Assembly: GCA_001662655.1 (NCBI GenBank)
Contig: KV460206.1
DNA from: Pseudogymnoascus verrucosus
Taxonomy: Eukaryota
DNA: 64,000 nt
Strand: one strand, 5' to 3'
Shown: positions 6,091-32,190 of the stretch, one piece after another
Numbering within the stretch: the first letter of the stretch is position 1
How the letters are laid out: the number at the start of each line of letters is the position of its first letter
The notes under the pieces: model-generated
What the model was told of the DNA's origin: nothing
Seen by the model: only the letters and a program-made list of their open reading frames with translations
Database searches by the model: none
Translations under genes and position numbers: made by a program

Positions 6091-6652
6091 TTTTGTATTA
6101 TGGTTCGAACTTGGATAGATATACAGACGAGACAACTGTTTGAAGCTTTTTAGAAAGACGAGGATGAACACCCTGTAATAATCACTTGTGGATGCTCCGG
6201 CAATAGCTGTGTTAATAATGTTCGAATAATTTTTATCGGCCGTTCCTTACAAAAATGGGTTTGGGTGAGGCCGAGATGTCACCAACCGACGTAAAAAGCA
6301 TGAGATCGGTGGATAAGTATCCACTCTAGTATTTAAGTTCTGGCAACGTAAGGTAAATACTTAAACCGCAAGTTTATAGAGCATCGGATTTACCTAGCTA
6401 CTTTCGCTCTAGGGTTGGGCCCCCTACTTAGTTGTTAGACTCAAAGGGATGTCTCACGCTATCAAGGTTCTAACATCATATTTCCTGAAATTATTCTACG
6501 TTGCTACTCCTGGCTATTGCTACTCCTGGCTACTGCACTTCGCGTGCCGAAAGTGATAATTTCGCTTTAGCGTAAGAAACCCACGCAACGCGTAGATGCA
6601 ATCGCAATAGTGTAAGTGACGCTACATATACTGCTTTACAAGAGAGCCTTTC

Positions 6653-6713
6653 ACATACGACCATAGACTCAAGATAATTGGACATCCCGTCCGCTGTGCC
6701 ATACACAAGCTTG
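6653..6713 (+). rRNA. 5S rRNA gene, 5' half (nt 1-61), interrupted by an insertion
   Basis: ACATACGACCATAGACTCAAG...CATCCCGTCCGCT...CAAGCTTG matches the ascomycete 5S 5' end. A TATA-like TACATATA lies about 30 nt upstream. Confidence 0.92.
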
Positions 6714-7094
6714 TAATCCAGTGGATTAATACTCTCAATCGTGCCAATAGGCATAGCCTGGAATCTGAGCCCCTTGCCGCCTCAAGGGTGATCTTGGGGT
6801 GAAGAGCGGGTGAGCAGGGTGAGCAGGGCGAGAAGATGCAACGTTTTTCGTGTCAATTTCGTGGCAATGTCGTGCCGCTCCATTAACAAGGGACGACCTG
6901 TTGCCTCACCTCAATTGTCTGCTGGAGGCGTATACCCGTCAGCATCCGGCCCAAGTGGACGAGCACCATTGCTTTGGCTGGCTGCCTTGTCCGGATGAGC
7001 AAGCGAGGGAAGTCTCGTCGAAGGTACCGTTAATATATCTTTCTTCTCACTCCAATCTATACACAACCCTCTCTCGTACACCCAACAAGCTAGT

Positions 7095-8921
7095 TTAGTG
7101 AAGCGCAAACTTCGACCTAGCCCTCAGCTTTGCGCCGAAGATCCAGAGCAAAAACATACCCACAATCCCAATCACACTCAGCCCACCTAAAACGCTCGTC
7201 CCCCTACCGATTCCGAGGTTCTTGTACAACGGATGCGCGTATAAGATTGACGCACACGCGGACGCGCTGCGCAGGAAGTCATTAGCAGCGAAAAGGCTAG
7301 CTGCGTACTGGGGGTACGATATCGGGACATAGGTGAAGATGCACTGCATAACGACGAAGACGGTAGCGGCGTAGATAACGATGCCTATGGTTGGGACAAC
7401 CCAACTTATGCTTGGCCGCGCGGTCCACTAAACGAATTAGCTTGTGATTCGGTTGCTGACATGAGGAGGACACACTGCAAACATGAATAGACCCACAGTG
7501 GGGCCGAAGCACGCGAAAAGAGCCGGCACGAGACGGTGCTCCTGCGCCCGGAGACCGTTCTTCAGGATATCAGGGATCATATAAAAGTGTAGGTAGGCTG
7601 AGTAAACCAAGACACCAATGAGACACGCAATAAGGATACATGTAAATAAGACGCCGATGGTGCCAATGGTAAAACCGTAGAAAACCGGATAAACTAAGGG
7701 GAAAACTTCAAAAAAGCTGTAGTAAATCCCATAAATGATAGCAGTATAAACGTTTACAAACAGAATAGCCGGGTCCTTGATGGTAATCTCCATTGGTTTA
7801 ATTAAGGCGTCCACGGCGACCTCGCGAGTGCTAAGTTTAGCCTGATCAATCTCGCTTTGTGACATAAGCCGAGACTCGCTAGTGAGTTTGCGCAGGCGCT
7901 TAGCTCTACGCAGGAGGATGTTTGGCGTGCTTGTCTCGGGAAGCACAGTGAACATGAGAATCACTACTGGGCAGGCGGCCCACAATATTATCCATAATGA
8001 CCACCTCCAGCCCTTAGCTTCTACGGCGAAGCCGCTTAAAAGAGGGCCTAACGCGGGCCCGCAATATGCTGCACTAACCCACGCAATGAGCGCATAAGGT
8101 AGGTATAACATAGATACCATATCGCTCATTGTTGCGGCTCCCGTCGCTAAGCATGGGGAGCCGAAGAAACCCTGTAGGAACCGAAGGACGAGGAGACCGG
8201 CAAAGTTGTTAACAAGCGCCGTAGGAAGCGAAATGATAGTGAAAAGTATCATGCTGATAATATACACTGGTGACCGACCGATTCTCGGGATTTCGCTAAG
8301 GGGCGAGAAGATGAGAGGTCCTATGCCATAAGCAAGGACATATAGTGCTAAAGGCAGCGAGGCCTCAACAGCCGTAATATGGAACTTTTCAATGACCTGT
8401 GGGATACTCGAAGTGTAGATGGCAGACCCAGAGTACACAACAAAAGTGTAAAGACATATGAGGAAGCCAACCCATGACTTCTTGCCTACGGACCAGTTCT
8501 GTGGGTTCGCAGGATCGTCTGTAGAATACCAGTCAACAAGTACTATTCCGTCAGCCGTCTTAGCTGGGTATATAGGCTTGCTAGTGGTGCGCTCGACAGC
8601 GTCCTGGATCTCAGTCTCTAGGCGTTCCTGGGTCAACTGTTGGGTAGTATGGCGGGAGAGGCTGCTTTGGTGTTCAATGTCCTGATTGTACAGTTCGGGG
8701 TCTGGAGTTGCGTATGGCTCATCGCTCTGCAAGACGATCTCCTCGTTCGGTTGCTCTTGACTGAGGGGACGCTCGATTGGCTTCTTCTCCGGCTTGAGGA
8801 GGGCTTTGTAAGCTTCTGGGATCTCATAGCCAGGGAGCTCTTCGGGGTATGGGAAGAGTCGGTTTTTAGTGACATATCTTAGGAGCTGACCTAAAGGGGC
8901 CTCTCGTATCAGGTCCGACAT
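7095..8921 (-). CDS. MFS drug:H+ antiporter, DHA1 family (Mdr1/Flu1/Caf5-like)
   Basis: N-terminus MSDLIREAPLGQ; motifs WYSTDDPANPQNW, SPLSEIPRIGR, LRFLQGFFGSP, LPETS. One intron near 7428-7476, and the last exon ends LRARSKFALH*. Confidence 0.93.
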
Positions 8922-9521
8922 GACAAGCATCTGATTAATGTGTATACTAGAAGTAATAAATTCCTTCAGGTGGGGATGTAGCAAGTGCCACCGATAGGAA
9001 GGTCAGTGAAAGAGACCACGAGAGGGAATTACAGCGATCTTGGAATGGAAAAGAAAATACCCACGAGACAGTCAAGAGTCTAATATATATACATCTCTCT
9101 CACGTAAACACTTACAAATGTAGGCCTCTCAGTAAATCCCAGCCTTACACGGAGTTGGTGGAGATGATGCGCGTTTCGGTCCAAGTGAGTACCACGTCTT
9201 TCGGTTAACTAACGCACTTATCCAGAAACAGATGATGCCATGCCGGCGGGACAGTGGGTTGATATCTCCTAGATCGTGAATCTATTGGATACTTTAGGAT
9301 GACGACGGAAGGGATTAGTGATCGGAAATAGATTCGGGTTGTGGATATGATGTTAAGAATGGGTTAATCTGCTCTTTCGAGAGCCATGGTCCACTAAACC
9401 AACATCAACAACCACAGTAGCGTGCCGTTGGTTATAGGAGGCGACTGTAATATGGCTAGGGATTGCAGCTGACGAACGGAATGCGCGCATCCATGTATCA
9501 CATATTGTACTGTGCCAACAG

Positions 9522-9921: not shown

Positions 9922-10122
9922 GTAAAGGCGCTTTGCTGCTCTTTCCATACTTTCACTTGCTTCCTTTGTGAGACCAGACAAGCTTCCGTTTCGGATTTGG
10001 AGATAATGTGGAGTTCGTTCTCACTCTCGGCTCGCGATGACGGTCGTGAGGGCATCAAAATCTTAAGGCAGCAACGCTCACCTGCTAGTCCAAATGGCAC
10101 TGTCTTGAGTATTAATCCACTT

Positions 10123-10188
10123 CAAGCTTGAGATCGGTGGATTAGTAGTTGGGTGGGTGACCACCAGCGAATACCCACTGTTGTATGT
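10123..10188 (+). rRNA. 5S rRNA gene, 3' half (including the duplicated 8 bp)
   Basis: CAAGCTTGAGATCGGTGGATTAGTAGTTGGGTGGGTGACCACCAGCGAATACCCACTGTTGTATGT. The end GTTGTATGT pairs with ACATACGAC of the 5' half, and CTTGAG pairs with CTCAAG. Confidence 0.93.
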
Positions 10189-10196
10189 TTTTTTTT
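10188..10196 (+). terminator. RNA polymerase III oligo-T terminator of the 5S gene
   Basis: Run of nine T starting at the last 5S nucleotide. Confidence 0.8.
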
Positions 10197-11100: not shown

Positions 11101-11234
11101 GTGGCGTCATGCTTCTAGCTCTGGCCCTTGGCGGAGCTGTGGGTTAATTAGAGCTTCAGGCTCAAGCTCACTCTCAAAAATCGGTGCCATAGTTGGGTCT
11201 TCCTGCTCAACTCCAATTGAGAGATCCTTCTGGG

Positions 11235-11456
11235 TGTAAAGCGTAGTACCTAGGGCCTCACGGGAGTCCAGGGAACCAGGTCAGAAGGCAGGAAGTGAGA
11301 TCGTATTGCAAGACAGTAGGTCTACGTATGTACAGCGACTATCGGCTGGAGGCCTCCTTCTGAGGCTTCCAGCTCCTTATATCCTACGTTCCTTCATACT
11401 CCACTGCCGGGCAGCCCCTGAGTTCAGGACGGCCCCACGTGATGGGCCGCCTTACA
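11235..11456 (-). mobile_element. LTR remnant (~222 bp)
   Basis: Termini TGTAA...TTACA and an internal TATA-like GATATAAGG on the minus strand. The 5-bp flanks do not match, so this is not a clean solo LTR. Confidence 0.55.
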
Positions 11457-23771: not shown

Positions 23772-24680
23772 ATGGCGCAGCCTTTTCAACTTCCATACTT
23801 CAGAAATTCCAAGGAATTACCTGCACCTCTTCCCTCTGTTGATGAAATTCATGCGTTACTAAATATCCTTAAGGGACTTGAAGCTTGGGCAGACAGAAAG
23901 GTTGTGAGGGTTGGTTAACATTTTATCGCAAAATACAGCCCTTATAACGATTAAATAGAAGGAGAGAGCCTTCTATTCATTGAGCAAAACCTTCAAATAT
24001 CGGCTCCTTGATTATATGCAATGTGGAAAGAGCCTGATGGAAAGCTTTATATTGTCATGGAATACCTTCAGGGAGATACGCTCTAGTTTATGTGGCCAAA
24101 TCTTCAAGAATCTAACAAAGTCATCATTCTCTCAAAGCTACGAGCCATTTTTAACCAAGTACGCACCCTTTAGTCCTCTGGCTTTTTGGGAGCATCAACA
24201 AGAGCCACATGCCACATCATCTATTCTACTCTCTAGCGTACGATCCAAAGATATCTAGCCCCTTTGGAAGTGAGAGTGACTTCGTTCTAGGGCTAATATC
24301 AAAATCTCGGCTTAACGCAGAGGACCGCAAAAGGCATTCTTATCTAGCTGATTTCGAAATCAGCCAGATAAGAATGCCTTTTATTGTCGGCTCTTGTTGA
24401 GGACGATCGCACATCTACATTTACCCACTCCGATTTACAGATGAAGAATATTCTAGTTAAAGAGATTTCGTCACAGGAGTTTTCGCAGGGAAAGGACTAC
24501 GATGTGTCAATTGTGGACTAGGGATCAGCGGGGTAGTATCCTCGCTACTAGGAATACGTCGCAGCCTTTTTTGCGTTTACGTGGGATAGTGACTGGTCTA
24601 ACAGGGTGGCTGATATTATGGACGCCTAGCCTGCAGAAGCAGCAATGATGAAGATGATATACCAGGATCTGTGGCTCTAG
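23772..24680 (+). pseudogene. Aminoglycoside-phosphotransferase-like (APH/kinase-like) pseudogene, RIP-type stops
   Basis: Motifs LYIVMEYLQGDTL, FTHSDLQMKNILV and VD*GSAG*YPRY*EY (canonical DWExAGWYPxYWEY), with several in-frame TAG/TAA. Confidence 0.8.
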
Positions 24681-25513: not shown

Positions 25514-25929
25514 GTTAGAAAGCTAGCGACAACTAGCTTTAATATCAAACTGTAGAAGAAGTTAGAAAATATAAACATCAATAATACAGTAGAAGGCGAA
25601 TTAGGTGTCGCTATTTTTTTTAGTAGTTCTTTTTAACAGGGTCCATTTCTAGACACTTGCGGCTATGCAACCCTGCCTGCTTGTACCCTAGAGGTACTGC
25701 TGCTAGTTGTCATTGAAGAGCGGCGCTGATTCTTACTGATCGATGCTTCGTAGCACACCGTCTAATGACCTAACCTTACTGTACGGAATCGTTACTTTAT
25801 AAGTATAGCTAGTGCGGCTAGTGGTGGTATATGGTGCTAAGTCGCTTTTATTAATTTACTATTTCTCGTACCATGCTTGCACTACTCGGTCCATTTGCAA
25901 TGGTTCTCTATCTTCTAATTAATGCAGCA

Positions 25930-28900
25930 TTAAACGCCTGGCTCTACATTCTCCATCTGCCACTCATTCAAAGTTTCAAGGGAAGTCTCTGTGTTAGGAT
26001 GATGACGGCCAAGGACCCGTTCTTCCAGCTGAAAGCATATCTCCATCAGTGAAATAGCCTCATTATTTCGGCTTTGGGACTTTAGCGTAAACGCAAGGTT
26101 AGACATGGCTATTAGCGTGTCAGGGTGTTCATGCCCAAGCACTCGTTGTCTCGTCTCCATTACTCGCACCTCCATATCTTCGGCCTCCTTCCACTGCATT
26201 TGACTGTACAAAGTAGAGGCTAGGTTGGCCATACTAGTAAGTGTGTCCTTGTGCTCTACCCCAAGCACCTTCTTCCTCTCTTCTAAAGTTCGTTGGTGCA
26301 TGGCCTTAGCCTCGTCGTACTTGCCCTGGCTATTGAGCACTGAAGCGAGGTTGTTCATGCTCATAAGTGTAGAAGGGTGCTTCTGACCGAGCACTTCTGT
26401 ACTAAGCTGGAGCTCCTCTCGGTGCATGGCCTCACCCTCGTTGTACTTGCCCTGGCTATGGAGCGCTGTAGCAAGGTTTTTCATGCTCTTGAGCGTGGAG
26501 GGGTGCTTCTGGCCGAGCACTTCTGTACTGAGCTGGAACCCCTCTCGTAACATGGCCTCAGCCTTATTGTACTTGCCCTGGCTATAGAGCACTGAAGCGA
26601 GGTTGTTCATGGTCATGAGCGTAGAGGGGTGCTTCTGGCCGAGCACTTTTGTCCTGAGCTGGAGCCCCTCTCGGTGCATGGCCTCAGCCTCGTCGTACTT
26701 GCCCTGGCTATCGAGTACTAAGGCAAGCATCCCGATACTTTCAAAGATTCTCGTGTTATCATCCTGTAGAAGATGTTGACGAGTAGTAAGAGATTCCTGG
26801 CTTTCTGCCTTCGCAATTTCATAACGACCCTGAAGCCAGTTGTACCAAGCCATATTATACAAGAGGGATGCACGCTCAAGCATAGATTGGTTTGACTCTA
26901 GCTCATACTTGAGCACTTTAATAGCATGTGGTGACAAAGCTTCACACGTCTTCCAGTTTCCATAGTCTCCACCTGGAAAAGCTTTTGCCACCACTTCGAT
27001 TGCCTCTCTCCGCCATCTTTCGCTGTCCCCAGATCGCTCTAGCCACTGCCGTGTTGCGAGTTGCACAAGCCTGTGCATCTCAAAGGCCTTACCTCCATTC
27101 TTAATAGTGATCAAAGAAAACTCATCTAAAGGGGCTAGAGCGTCTTCGAAATCGAGGGGAGTGTGGTATTGGGCGCAAAGGAGGAATTCGGGAATCCCTT
27201 GGCGATCGAGCATAGCCATGAGGGACAAAAGCTCTGCAGCTTGTGGCTTGCTCCGCTTAATCTGGTCGAAGGAGATTTGCCAGGTCCGGATCACAGAATT
27301 ATGAACGCCAGGAGCCCGTCTTAGATCCCCAGATTCTTCGTCAAGTAGCCTGGTTTGACTTTGTTCGTTTTGACGATAGAGCATCAAGTACTTAGACACA
27401 CTCATCCGAATGGCTTTCGCGCTAATATATGAAGCGGCTTGAGTAATTGCTAGTGGTAGATAGTCCAGCTCTTTAACAAGCTCGGCACGATCAGAGCTAG
27501 TAGATATACCTTCAGGGATATTAATGCGAAGTAACTGGTCGGCTTCCTCCAGCTCCATCAAATTGACCAAAATGACGCTCGTGTATCCAGTACTGAGCCA
27601 AGATGCTGCTCTTCGGTCTCGTGTGGTAAGGAGTACTGATCCAGTTATAGTCAGTGGGATGTAACTCGATAACGGAAAGGCAGTGTCATTCCATTTTTGA
27701 GATCCCTCCCCTTGCGTCTGTTGAAACATGTCGATATCGTCAGCATTATCGAGAATGATAAGCCAGCGGCCATTATCGATGTTGCTCAACCATCTTAAGA
27801 CTAGGCCCAACACGTCCGTCTTTGGGTCATCTGCACCTGGTAGTTCAAGTTCAGTAGCGATGGATCTGTAAGCTTGTTCGAATCGCTCGGCGGTACTTGC
27901 ATACACCCAGAAGACCCATACTTGAGGGTCCCTCACTCTCAGCCGATACGAGAATTCAATTGCAATTTGTGATTTGCTATGTTCTTGTTAGGTACTAGGA
28001 TATGGAGGGTGGAACCGAGTCATACCCTACCCCACCTAAACCCACAAGGACTGTCCGATTATGGGAGTTAGATTGACAGAACCGCAATTCTAGAGCTGCA
28101 AGAGCATCTTGTCTCCCAACGAACTTTGTATCCCTATCGAATGGAACGGTTGATCGTGGGGGTTTCTTTCTCGACGCAGGCGCTAAATGCCATTCGAGTG
28201 AGTTAGCATTGACTTCAAGATTGACAGAAACGAGAAGGGGTATAGTATCATATTATTGGAACGTCTAGAAAAGGCCTCAGTTCTCTATCAAAAATCACAA
28301 ATACGAGATCAGTTAAGAACAATCTAGAGCTACGTACAAAATCGGTCCAGAACAATTTTCCTAGCATCTTGTTCAAATTCCTTCAAATAACCAACCGCAG
28401 CCTTGTATGCTTCGGCATTGCGATTGTCGAACTTGACAATTTGAGAATGGTCTGCATCAACTGGAATCTTTATCTCGGTGCTGTCGGGAAGTTCGAGAAG
28501 AGCCGAGCTAGACTCGACAGCGGTCATATATTCTCCTGTTCGGCCCCATTTGTTTGTCTTGGGGTTCTAGGAGACAATGTCAGCTATTTTAATCCTTCCT
28601 TGATCGAGCTATCAAAAACATCTCACCAGCTGCAGTCGTCTTGTCTGTTGCCCCTCGTAAAAGCTGACAATCTTCCGATCACGGATCAGATTCTTAAAGT
28701 CCGTGAGCTGATATAATAACAGATTAGACTTTAGTTTAATCTGCTCAAGCAACTCTATCCTCGGGTGCTGATCCTTTCCTGCTACCATACGTTGGATATC
28801 GTCGATAACGAGTCCTTTGTGTAGGGCACCGAAGAATAATATGCCGTATGTTGCTTTATACAAAGCGGCAATTGTTGCATTGTCGCGTTCATCTGTCTGC

Positions 28901-29720
28901 ACCGCTTTTACAAGGCACTGATATAATTAGTATAAAGTGTTCTATTAGTCGGTCCTTAACAATCCGCTGCTAGACTCACATGACCTAGTATGATTCCTCC
29001 AAAGCTATGTGCAATAAAAAAGAGCGGTCTCTCTCGAAGCTAGAAGACGACATTATTAGCTAATTCCACCTTACTCTCGCGATGCACCTTGCCTCTCGTG
29101 TATGCCGGATCCTCTTAATAGCTTCTAAGAACTCTCGTCCATAATCCATAATAGTATTTATGCCATGACTCGAGAGTTTTGAATTATAGCCGTAAATCAT
29201 TGTTCGGCAGTGCGGCAGATCTTTCGAGAGGAAGTCGCGGAGCCACATGCGCCCGAGGTTTCCCTTTCCCTTCCACGAGCCATATGCATGTCCGTTGAGG
29301 CCCGTGATAGCGATTATACTACGTGGTAGATTAGACATATATTCCCTAGGGAGGAAATATTACCTACTCAGCGGTAGCTGGCGAGCCTGGTTCTAGTGCG
29401 TATAGCTGGGTGAACCCAAAGAAGTGTTGGTCGAAATTTATGTCTATGTCGCCCATCTCTACCTGGCAGTCGCCTAACGGGTTGACCATCAGCTCCGACA
29501 GGAATGCAGGCACTCCGCCGTGGAACTCGACTAGCGCGACTTTTTCGTCATTGTCGTTGCAGGAGGGCACAATAGCTGTATTGGGGGTCACCTTCGACGG
29601 TTCGTCCTTCTCTAGGTTGTCGTTGATGGCAGCCTTCAACGCTTGGTTGAGCTCGTCGTCAGGCAGAGAGGCTGGGAGACCGGTTACCCGGAAAACAGTA
29701 CCCTTCTTTCTGGACGCCAT
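25930..29720 (-). CDS. Fungal NLR-like protein: SesB-like alpha/beta hydrolase, NB-ARC, TPR (multi-exon)
   Basis: GLNGHAYGSW...MWLRDFL...YGYNS and FIAHSFGG hydrolase motifs; spliced P-loop GLGGVG|KSQIA; Walker B WLIILDNADD; LPLAITQAA; MHRLVQ; 42-aa TPR repeats. Confidence 0.9.
26290..26730 (-). repeat. 126-bp tandem TPR-coding repeats with high internal identity
   Basis: GTACTTGCCCTGGCTAT recurs at 26317, 26443, 26569 and 26695 (period 126). Confidence 0.9.
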
Positions 29721-30089
29721 CTCGGTTCATCGTCGAGCGGAGCCTTCACCAGAGCTTTGAGCGTCAGATGGGCGGAGGGTTGGTTGCACCTGGAAGGGGA
29801 GGCAGAAGGAGGGCAGCTAAGGCTAACAAGGCTTAGTACAGTAAACCCTCAGCCGCACATGGGCGATTAAGGGTGGGACTCCGGCCCGCACCGCTGTGGA
29901 TTCGTAGTGCGCATTATCTGCTATGGCAATTGTGCACGTCTGTAGTGGACGACGTAACCATCGTATCCAACTGTTCGCTTCGCTACAGTCTGAATAACTC
30001 AGGTTGCTGGAGAATTTTGTAGAGGGTCTCGGGGAAGCCCATAGAATCCTGTCGAAGCTCTGTCTAAGCCGCCGATTCTACCTCTCTTA

Positions 30090-32190
30090 GTACATACCTC
30101 TAGCAGTACCTCCTAGTACATGTATCTATAAAGCTACAACAAGCTATAGGCCTACCCTACAGTCTTACAAATAAAGTTAACTAAAAATCCCATAATACCT
30201 AATTCGCCTTCTACTATAGTAGTAGTGCATTTTAAACTATAAGTAGGGAAAAGCTTATATTAGCTTCTACTAGTTATAATTATAGGCTATAGATAAGGTG
30301 TTGTTAGCATAGAAGCTACTTTTAAATACTTCTTATAAGGACATAGGGAATACAGCTCTCTATAGGTGCAATATAAGTGTAAGTTAGAGGTAATTGTTAT
30401 AGGCATAGTAGGAGGCCCTACCTTAGGGGTAACGTGTTAACGTGTAACGCTAGGTCTTAAACTATAAGACTTATAGAGGTTTTATTACGTTAGTTTACTT
30501 AATAGAGGAGGTAGGGGATTAGACACAAAGGCTTTTATAAAACATATTATAGTATATAACAAAATACTATATTAAGTTAAGTATAAAGCTCCTATCTAAG
30601 ACTAACTATTTACTTATATAGTAGCGTTATACTAAAGGGAATAGTTAGAATAGTAAACTCCTTTGCTATTCTTACTATTCCTACTATTCTATTATATAGG
30701 GTTCTAATAAGGAGGTGCCTATAAATAGTCTAGTACCTGCTCTATCTAGTACTTAGTAATAGTTAGGTACCTAGAAAGAGTTAGGTGCCTACTCTATCTA
30801 GTACCTATAGAAGTAGGTGCTTACGAAAACTCTATTACCTAATGTTAACCCTACCTTAAGGGTAGTTAACTTACTAATATGTTTATTACTACTATAACTA
30901 GTGTGTTAGTAAAAGTGCAGCTGTAAATGCTAGCTATAACATTATACTTCTAAGCCTATAATTCATTTCTATAATATACTAGAAGGTGCTAATAGTCTAT
31001 ATATTATAATTATAAGGACATAGGGCACTATATTATAAGAAGTTATATATAGGAGTGTAAGTTAGATAGAAGTTAGTGCAATCCTATAGGTCTACTATAA
31101 AGGATATAAAAAAGATAAAGGTATAACCCTATATAGCTGTTCCTTTAAAATACCTAAAACTACTCTAACTTAGCTAGCTCCTTATTTACCTAAGGCTTCC
31201 TTACGTTATGTGCCTAAGGCTGTTAGTTGTAACTAACCTATAACGGCCCTAAGTCTTAATAGTGCTACGTGACAGCTATAACTACCCTAAGTAAGGAGGC
31301 ATCCTTATAATAATAACCCTTACTTAAAATGTAGATAATTATAAATATTACCCTTTTCTTTACTAGAATAACTCTATCTATTACCTAACTTAGGGTTACT
31401 CTCTAATATAAAAACAGAGAAGCTATTATAGTAAATAAATTTAACGTTTCTATGTTTTATATATCTATAGGTAATTTAGGCTCTATTAACACTCTTCCTC
31501 TAAGTAGGATTTGTAAGGGTTTAGTGGAAGCGTGCTACGGCCGCAGGCTCCGGTAACAGAAATGGTATTCAACAGACAAATCTCTAAGCCCCCCCTATAG
31601 GGGGCTTAGCTACTCTTATCTACTGCTTCGCAGTCGGGTCCCTGCCGACTCGGCGGCGGGTCGGTGCTACGTGCCATCCTCTTACTGGCTATAGGGCATA
31701 GGGCATATGGGTGCATGGGCGCGACTGCCACGGGATGCCTAAGGCACCGGTAACAGAAATGGTATTCAACAGACAAATCTCTAAGCCCCCCCTATAGGGG
31801 GCTTAGCTACTCTTATCTACTGCTTCGCAGTCGGGTCCCTGCCGACTCGGCGGCGGGTCGGTGCTACGTGCCATCCTCTTACTGGCTATAGGGCATAGGG
31901 CATATGGGTGCATGGGCGCGACTGCCACGGGATGCCTAAGGCACCGGTCCCCTAGTCCCCGGGCCCGCGTCGCCCCCGAGGTGGGCCTCCTGCCGTACCC
32001 GTAACAGGATTTATTAGGAATAGTTTAGATTAAGGTATCTTAGGGATAATTAATTATTACTAGTTCCTTTAATAATTAAGCTGTCCTTATAAGGGTTAGG
32101 ATAGTTATAGATGTAGCTAAGTTATGTTATAGCAGAGGAAGAAAGCTTAGTAAGAATTGAATAAGTTTTGAATACGTGTTGTTGTAGGAG
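30090..32190. mobile_element. AT-rich RIP-degenerated transposon relic (interrupted by a solo LTR)
   Basis: Abrupt AT/TpA enrichment with little CpA/TpG and no ORF of 60 aa or more. A possible decayed zinc knuckle lies near 31003-31050. Family not identifiable. Confidence 0.75.
31512..32006. mobile_element. Solo LTR with 5-bp TSD and internal 197-bp tandem duplication
   Basis: TGTAAG...GTAACA termini, GGATT on both sides (31507-31511, 32007-32011), and 31550-31746 repeated at 31747-31943. Confidence 0.88.

Follow-up and report, generated by a model that had tools for sequence, protein, structure and literature searches.

Some Starships of the Enterprise family, such as Osiris of Aspergillus fumigatus, insert into 5S rRNA genes, and the parts of the published accounts drawn on here place their direct repeats (aagcc, ttaagccac and aagccacacg) at an AAGC site in box A (PMC11162782, PMC12153272). 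Both the class of element and the box A target site are already known. How a Starship captain chooses its target, and what role the terminal repeats play, are stated to be undemonstrated in the available portion of one of these papers (PMC11162782). The concept of an element end that resembles its target is not new, because it has already been described for Dada transposons, whose shared motif was proposed as a recognition signal in the portion of that work used here (PMC3706591). Our literature search returned no account of Starships with arms like their target, of junctions between joined ends or of restored 5S genes; one may exist in figures, tables or subscription papers.

The window analysed here is a stretch of 64,000 nt from Pseudogymnoascus verrucosus (contig KV460206.1 of assembly GCA_001662655.1). 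It contains a 3.4 kb element within a 5S rRNA gene, which we compare with related ends in genome G000, in four related genomes and in six metagenome loci.

The interrupted 5S rRNA gene and its insert

The 3.4 kb insert interrupts a fungal 5S rRNA gene whose parts lie at 6653-6713 and 10123-10189, with CAAGCTTG at both joins (6706-6713 and 10123-10130, + strand). The family-wide part of this 8 bp direct repeat is only GCTTG, at 6709-6713 on the left and 10126-10130 on the right. The 5' part (6653-6713, + strand) corresponds to +1 to +61 and is 94% identical to the most frequent 5S 5' halves of G000 over their first 53 nt. The 3' part (+62 to +120; 10131-10189, + strand) contains the target arm (10131-10149), GTGACCA (10157-10163) and a T-run terminator, is the same as the 3' halves of most intact copies and gives a partial match to Rfam RF00001 (E 0.087); because the gene is split, there is no Rfam match at the gathering threshold. 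The 8-mer CAAGCTTG is a palindrome at 5S +54 to +61, a position that we take to be box A from vertebrate coordinates (approximately +50 to +64).

The left-end arm of 20 nt (6714-6733, + strand) reads TAATCCA-GTGGATTAATACT directly after the left 8-mer, and the 5S continuation at 10131-10149 reads AGATCG-GTGGATTAGTAGT. These are the strings on which the original prediction was built, and the two 8-mers, the left arm and the 5S continuation were all confirmed. The left arm also contains a copy-specific hairpin, a 7 bp inverted repeat at 6714-6728. Next comes the best-conserved part of the left tip (6734-6757, + strand), in which GTGCCA (6741-6746) is in register with 5S GTGACCA (+88 to +94); a pattern made from this tip gave 66 matches in G000 and none in the reversed control. 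Inward-pointing GGGTGA/GGTGAGC repeats follow at 6786-6824 (+ strand). At the other end, the right arm of 18 nt (10108-10125, - strand) is the inverted counterpart of the left arm, and the right-end tip body (10076-10107, - strand) has GTGCCA at 10095-10100 and GGTGAGC at 10076-10082. This is the captain-side end in larger family members. The terminal inverted repeats (TIRs; 6720-6757 and 10084-10121) are 38 nt long and 76% complementary. Approximately 340 nt before the split gene lie the degraded remains of another right-end junction, to which a short piece of 5S arm is fused (6270-6319, - strand); they align with the ends at L111, L069 and L125.

The cargo is one MFS transporter gene (7095-8930, - strand; main frame 7437-9002; Pfam MFS_1, E 3e-32), with a predicted last exon at 7095-7427 and a predicted start near 8930. 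It is the sole gene of the insert: there is no recombinase in the element, and tblastn detected no captain remnant in the window. The interior is single-copy in G000, which also carries a paralogue of the MFS gene at 74% identity (L068, C71:102526-104531). No element end was present in the 10 kb retrieved at L068, and the paralogue possibly marks the source lineage of the cargo gene. Dinucleotide indices gave no strong RIP signal. The element and both flanks are present in all four related genomes examined (24 runs listed), and in one of them (X3) a single contig spans both junctions. None of the four has a locus-specific empty site. Joins between 6705 and 10123 in the related genomes were considered as empty sites and rejected, as their short side is 22-54 nt and they agree with intact 5S copies elsewhere. 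Loss of the captain in place after an old insertion is more probable than a recent move in trans.

Several other features of the window were recorded. At 25582-30221, 25 nt inverted repeats (92%) lie 4.6 kb apart around an NB-ARC/TPR gene (25930-27987), and this may be another mobile unit. A short repeat at approximately 11117-11400 is at high depth in all four related genomes, as an interspersed element. There is also a 197 nt tandem duplication with 99% identity at 31545-31948 and a 27 bp inverted repeat without a spacer at 24329-24382.

A family of 5S-associated ends with DUF3435 captains

Pattern searches of G000 gave 107 matches to the 5S 5' pattern (100 of them listed) and 83 to the 3' pattern. 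There are 43 intact 5S genes and approximately 60 interrupted ones. Among the non-intact records, 61 of the 5' kind and 44 of the 3' kind were examined, and a recognisable element tip was present at 51 and 33 of these, respectively. The records without a tip are truncated, rearranged or non-junction, with at least one locus counted twice among them, and two of the 33 right ends (L051 and L113), which are identical and each lie at the edge of a contig, could be a single locus. Both ends are known for twelve elements. These measure 3.0-14.4 kb, have only their end regions in common and differ in cargo (MFS, short-chain dehydrogenase, DUF3425). Both ends have inward-facing GGTGA(G/C)C repeats, at 1.25 and 3.36 per 300 nt compared with 0.02 in the window. 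A second 5S type, with C at +26 and TAACCTTG, makes up six of the 43 intact copies; immunity of this variant was considered and dropped, as one canonical insertion (L154) sits in it.

Broken DUF3435 genes start approximately 350-360 nt inside three right ends (C52, C25 and C27) and read inward. All the captains examined beside family ends in G000 have internal stops. The arrangement of right end, captain and 5S 3' half recurs at two of the six metagenome loci from outside G000 (L129 and L133). In all, DUF3435 adjoins the captain-side end in five loci. The original prediction had placed a site-specific recombinase behind the element, and these remnants of a tyrosine recombinase captain near family right ends bear it out. 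Among named captains, the nearest belong to Pseudogymnoascus, Venustampulla and Claussenomyces, and one relative (P0002, 47% identity to the C52 captain segment) is listed as fam06, which is Enterprise. There are two C2H2-like fingers in P0002 and such fingers in 31 of 40 long homologues; they are not confined to captains that target 5S. At L131 and L132 a tandem array with a unit of approximately 39 nt lies ahead of the captain start, and the contigs end before the element end.

A Starship carries its captain as the first gene at the 5' end. The window element has none, and the captain is found at the matching end of relatives with the same terminus (C52, C25, C27, L129 and L133). Short direct repeats matching the target are present (8 bp in the window copy, 5 bp as the family core), as are the optional TIRs and variable cargo. 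Neither an empty site, in the four related genomes, nor the same element at two loci, the interior being single-copy, was found. The window element is a captain-less (derelict or non-autonomous) member of a 5S-targeting Starship lineage rather than an autonomous Starship. By way of its relative P0002, the lineage most likely belongs to the Enterprise family.

Core and orientation

At the right junctions, identity with 5S extends over 5 nt in 16 of 33 cases, over 7-8 nt in 13 and over fewer than 5 nt in four. On the left, 49 of 51 junctions depart from 5S straight after GCTTG. Both outside loci with a junction have GCTCC as the core. The common core of the family is thus approximately 5 bp (GCTTG) and non-palindromic. 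The duplicated palindromic 8-mer, which had been proposed as the core, exists as a palindrome in the window copy, but the full CAAGCTTG is present at only eight of the 33 right ends. It had also been suggested that a palindromic core might allow insertion in either orientation. This was contradicted, as the opposite tip occurs in none of the 61 left and none of the 44 right junction records. Element bodies 60-200 nt inside agree in orientation in the 36 left and 28 right records that can be classified (24 and 13 cannot). At L069 (C2:379100-388600 of G000) the interior is inverted, with tips still side-specific and a captain remnant on the side of the 5' half, which suggests an inversion between imperfect TIRs; L111 is a borderline case.

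The inverted repeat TAATCCA-G-TGGATTA at the left end is likewise real in the window copy but is not a family trait: the 7 bp stem occurs in one of 42 left arms, and hairpins in these arms show no excess over shuffled sequences. Two irregular loci in G000 were noted. At L125 (C36 near 324850) a short stretch of the 5S 5' flank is duplicated ahead of the right-end core, and at L039 (C2:787657-787770) a 5S copy has a 6 nt deletion exactly at the core, which could be a scar of imprecise excision.

Similarity between the element arms and one arm of the target

The left end of the window copy matches the 5S continuation (+68 to +80) at 11 of 13 bases over 6721-6733. At least 11 matches in 13 have a chance probability of 1.1e-5 in any one register, or 7.7e-5 when seven registers are allowed for. 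The distance from the 8-mer to the start of the 13-mer is 7 nt at the left end, 6 nt in the target and 2 nt at the right end (reverse strand). The claim that the core of the TIR also occurs in the target at nearly the same distance therefore describes this copy well (11/13; 7 and 6 nt), but across the family the likeness is loose. The window copy overstates the family pattern because it is the best-matching left arm, the only one of 42 full-length left arms to reach 11/13, where the median is 7/13. Right arms match the 5S arm at a median of 9-10/13. The exact GTGGATTA, put forward as the recognised motif, was found in just two of 51 left ends and eight of 33 right ends and is not supported in that role.

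What is held in common is a degenerate motif, TA(A/G)TA(C/G)T-N7-GTG, so the expectation of a motif conserved among family ends survives in this form and not for the exact string. Element ends have TA(A/G)TA(C/G)T, seven bases and GTGCCA, and 5S has TAGTAGT-N7-GTGACCA at +74 to +94. The T residues at 5S +77 and +80 are invariant in 42/42 left and 28/28 right arms, and the proximal arm is highly variable among end types. From the core to the end of TA(A/G)TA(C/G)T there are 18 nt in the right arm, 19 nt in the target and 20 nt in the left arm.

Arm profiles were built from 41 left and 27 right arms, with the window element left out and similar sequences down-weighted, and were scored against a background of approximately 120,000 window positions with six registers tried. 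In register, the 5S arm on the 3' side of the core gave p = 1.2e-4 with the left profile, 8.5e-4 with the right and 2.2e-4 with both, and it is the top-scoring place of the whole 5S gene. The arm 5' of the core gave no profile signal (p no better than 0.17). Addition of the three GTG columns, which were chosen after viewing the alignment, gave p = 8e-6; with all 28 columns and left arms alone, p was 5.5e-3 and the 3' arm ranked third.

Within elements, left and right arms vary together (13.3 compared with 10.5 of 18 positions identical, p = 0.00065; 10 of 11 pairs, one being omitted for a truncated tip, with pairing assumed from position). As regards co-variation of arm with target, two of the six outside loci reach the junction, and at one of these (L133) AGAT is found in both target and arm, with a distal match of 7/7. 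AGAT arms are also present in G000, where the target has GGAT. At L088 (C53 near 121650 of G000) a variant 5S extends to +80 and is followed by element body in the predicted register, and at one left end (L144) a full arm has a non-5S flank. Taken together, the data partly support an att-like resemblance in a weakened, degenerate and one-sided form.

Joined ends and possibly restored 5S genes

Searches with the tip-body patterns gave 66 and 39 matches, and 28 regions without an adjoining 5S half were fetched. Six of these have clean junctions of right arm, core and left arm with a single copy of the core and a spacing of 18+5+20 (L135, L136, L137, L138, L160 and L161). Two of the six join ends of mixed types, and two (C33 and C71) reach an ordinary right junction within 4 kb. 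A further two junctions are degraded (L145 and L146), and the remaining regions are mostly decayed 5S junctions or truncated tips. A single core in the joined ends speaks for conservative recombination, is consistent with tandem arrays formed by reuse of an occupied site and is unlike the product of target duplication. This agrees with the view that Starship repeats are carried homology, as put in the portion of the source used here (PMC10104507).

Four of the 43 intact 5S genes have a left end just past the terminator (L139, L140, L162/L109 and L033), and two right junctions (L156 and L007) lead, by way of a 5S 3' half with its terminator, to a further left end. A near-identical join is shared by two loci that differ in their upstream flanks, and similar joining letters occur in runs X6 and X7. 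A sub-lineage that carries a captured 5S 3' half, and whose insertion restores the gene, is possible. In the simplest reading, imprecise excision would have taken the 5S 3' half, leaving a real 5S arm to serve as the element arm, and insertion would then rebuild the gene. If so, an element arm and a 5S arm could stand in for each other. Alternatively, deletions between adjacent 5S copies may have arisen independently. We also considered whether an ordinary left end could restore a working 5S gene and rejected this, as such an end lacks the 3' stem and the greater part of box C.

Discussion

We observed directly a family of ends, their junction geometry, their similarity to the target, a fixed tip orientation and single-core end-to-end junctions. 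The explanation that we consider best, with a probability of about 0.7 on sequence comparison, is that the window element is a derelict 5S-targeting Starship, that integration in its lineage is conservative and att-like, and that the captain binds a one-sided degenerate motif. An ancestor would have integrated by means of its DUF3435 tyrosine recombinase through conservative site-specific recombination, presumably from a circular intermediate, and the captain would have been lost after insertion. The joined ends would represent an attP-like site, with an 18 nt arm, a short core within GCTTG where the cuts may fall and a 20 nt arm. The 5S gene would be the attB-like site, in which only the 19 nt arm 3' of the core and the GTG of box C resemble the element arms. 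The captain probably binds TA(A/G)TA(C/G)T-N7-GTG in both element ends and in one target arm, and the one-sided match would thereby fix the position and orientation of insertion. Against this explanation, the arm match is loose, distances of 18, 19 and 20 nt are awkward for a rigid half-site, the GTG columns were picked post hoc, one left end (L144) has a non-5S flank, none of the four related genomes has an empty site and the 5S-like block of Osiris appears to be displaced, so that equal distance is not general.

The resemblance could instead be a relic of a Starship ancestor that captured 5S at one end, from which it spread to the other, with no role in targeting; the core and other features would then direct insertion. 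Capture of a 5S 3' half at left ends does appear to occur in the family, one end type (L111 and L125) retains more of box C, and most copies show no more than a loose similarity. One strongly held arm column (A, compared with G at 5S +76) mismatches the target. However, several of the invariant or nearly invariant arm columns are those shared with the target and their neighbours drift, which suggests constraint, and the ends act as partners at a fixed spacing in the joined-end junctions. We regard a relic as unlikely.

Less probable still is a role for TFIIIA or TFIIIC, in which one of these host Pol III factors would recognise the 5S promoter as well as the element ends, as mimics of the promoter, and would guide the captain. 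In 5S coordinates, the matched stretch of the target (+63 to +90) spans the intermediate element and the box C region, and the subterminal GGTGAGC repeats are similar to GGTGACC at 5S +87, but the G-rich stretch at +81 to +87, which carries key TFIIIA contacts, is missing from most ends. TFIIIA binds the intermediate element and box C region of 5S in the portion of the source used here (PMC3123226). The captains, on the other hand, have C2H2-like fingers of their own, albeit not specific to those that target 5S. Finally, a Dada-like or other DDE transposon, with an 8 bp target duplication and subterminal repeats matching the target, would fit the direct repeat and inverted ends of the window copy and the motif-in-target architecture reported in the part of the Dada paper used here (PMC3706591), but it is largely refuted by the full 8-mer at just 8/33 right ends, the single core in joined ends and the DUF3435 gene on the captain side in five loci.

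If the arm-recognition model is true, it would account for both 5S specificity and fixed orientation. Apparently intact 5S genes could be element boundaries, and the outline of a eukaryotic integrase system directed at a multicopy gene would emerge. Material from this genome allows recognition to be examined base by base: its junction variants number in the dozens, it has six joined-end sites, and the target arm is defined. A broader proposal, that these loci are the first natural attP/attB set for a Starship, with a bipartite arm motif, reuse of occupied sites, a 5S-restoring sub-lineage and captain-less shuttles of 3-14 kb carrying one or two genes and moved in trans, is tentative, and we would put it at well below even odds.

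Comparison with known systems

Phage and ICE tyrosine integrases use attP and attB sites in tRNA genes, with a short core between imperfect inverted arms. Their occupied sites are reused to give tandem arrays, and a captured 3' part of the gene allows insertion to restore it. Here, in contrast, most insertions disrupt the gene and just one target arm resembles the element. Unlike the case of phage and ICE integrases, we know of no accessory factors for this 5S-targeting family.

Dada, as described in the portion of the paper used here, also targets multicopy small RNA genes and has a subterminal inverted motif that occurs in the target at an equal distance. It differs in having a DDE transposase, true target duplications of 6-7 bp, no TIRs and U1, U6 and tRNA genes as targets (PMC3706591). 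The present family has TIRs and a single core in its joined ends.

Voyager of Macrophomina phaseolina, in the part of the account available, is likewise a Starship that has direct repeats and TIRs and is always inserted within dispersed 5S genes; it differs in its site (+20), family (10) and size (74-124 kb), and one 5S variant escapes it, whereas here a variant type has been hit at least once (L154) (10.1101/2021.12.13.472469).

For Osiris, comparisons of position rest on automated calls in supplementary tables. The TIR strings contain TTAGTA with GGTGA 8 nt further on, as in the 5S of A. fumigatus, and this lends modest support to 5S-like ends. By the same coordinates the 5S-like block lies approximately 36 nt after the start of the direct repeat, compared with 18 nt in 5S, a displacement of approximately 18 nt where the present arms are in register; we dropped Osiris as support for equal distance, and it is evidence against a constant one. 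These tables also imply the reverse direction of insertion, whereas here the captain end faces the 5S 3' half. Additionally, approximately 60 interrupted 5S copies in one genome distinguish the present family from Osiris, and the window copy is captain-less at 3.4 kb, where the smallest Starship given in the text available is 15,020 bp (PMC11162782). In other respects the resemblance to the 5S-targeting Enterprise Starships, as far as the consulted parts of the two papers describe them, is close: a DUF3435 captain at one end, imperfect TIRs, a fixed orientation and varied cargo (PMC11162782, PMC12153272).
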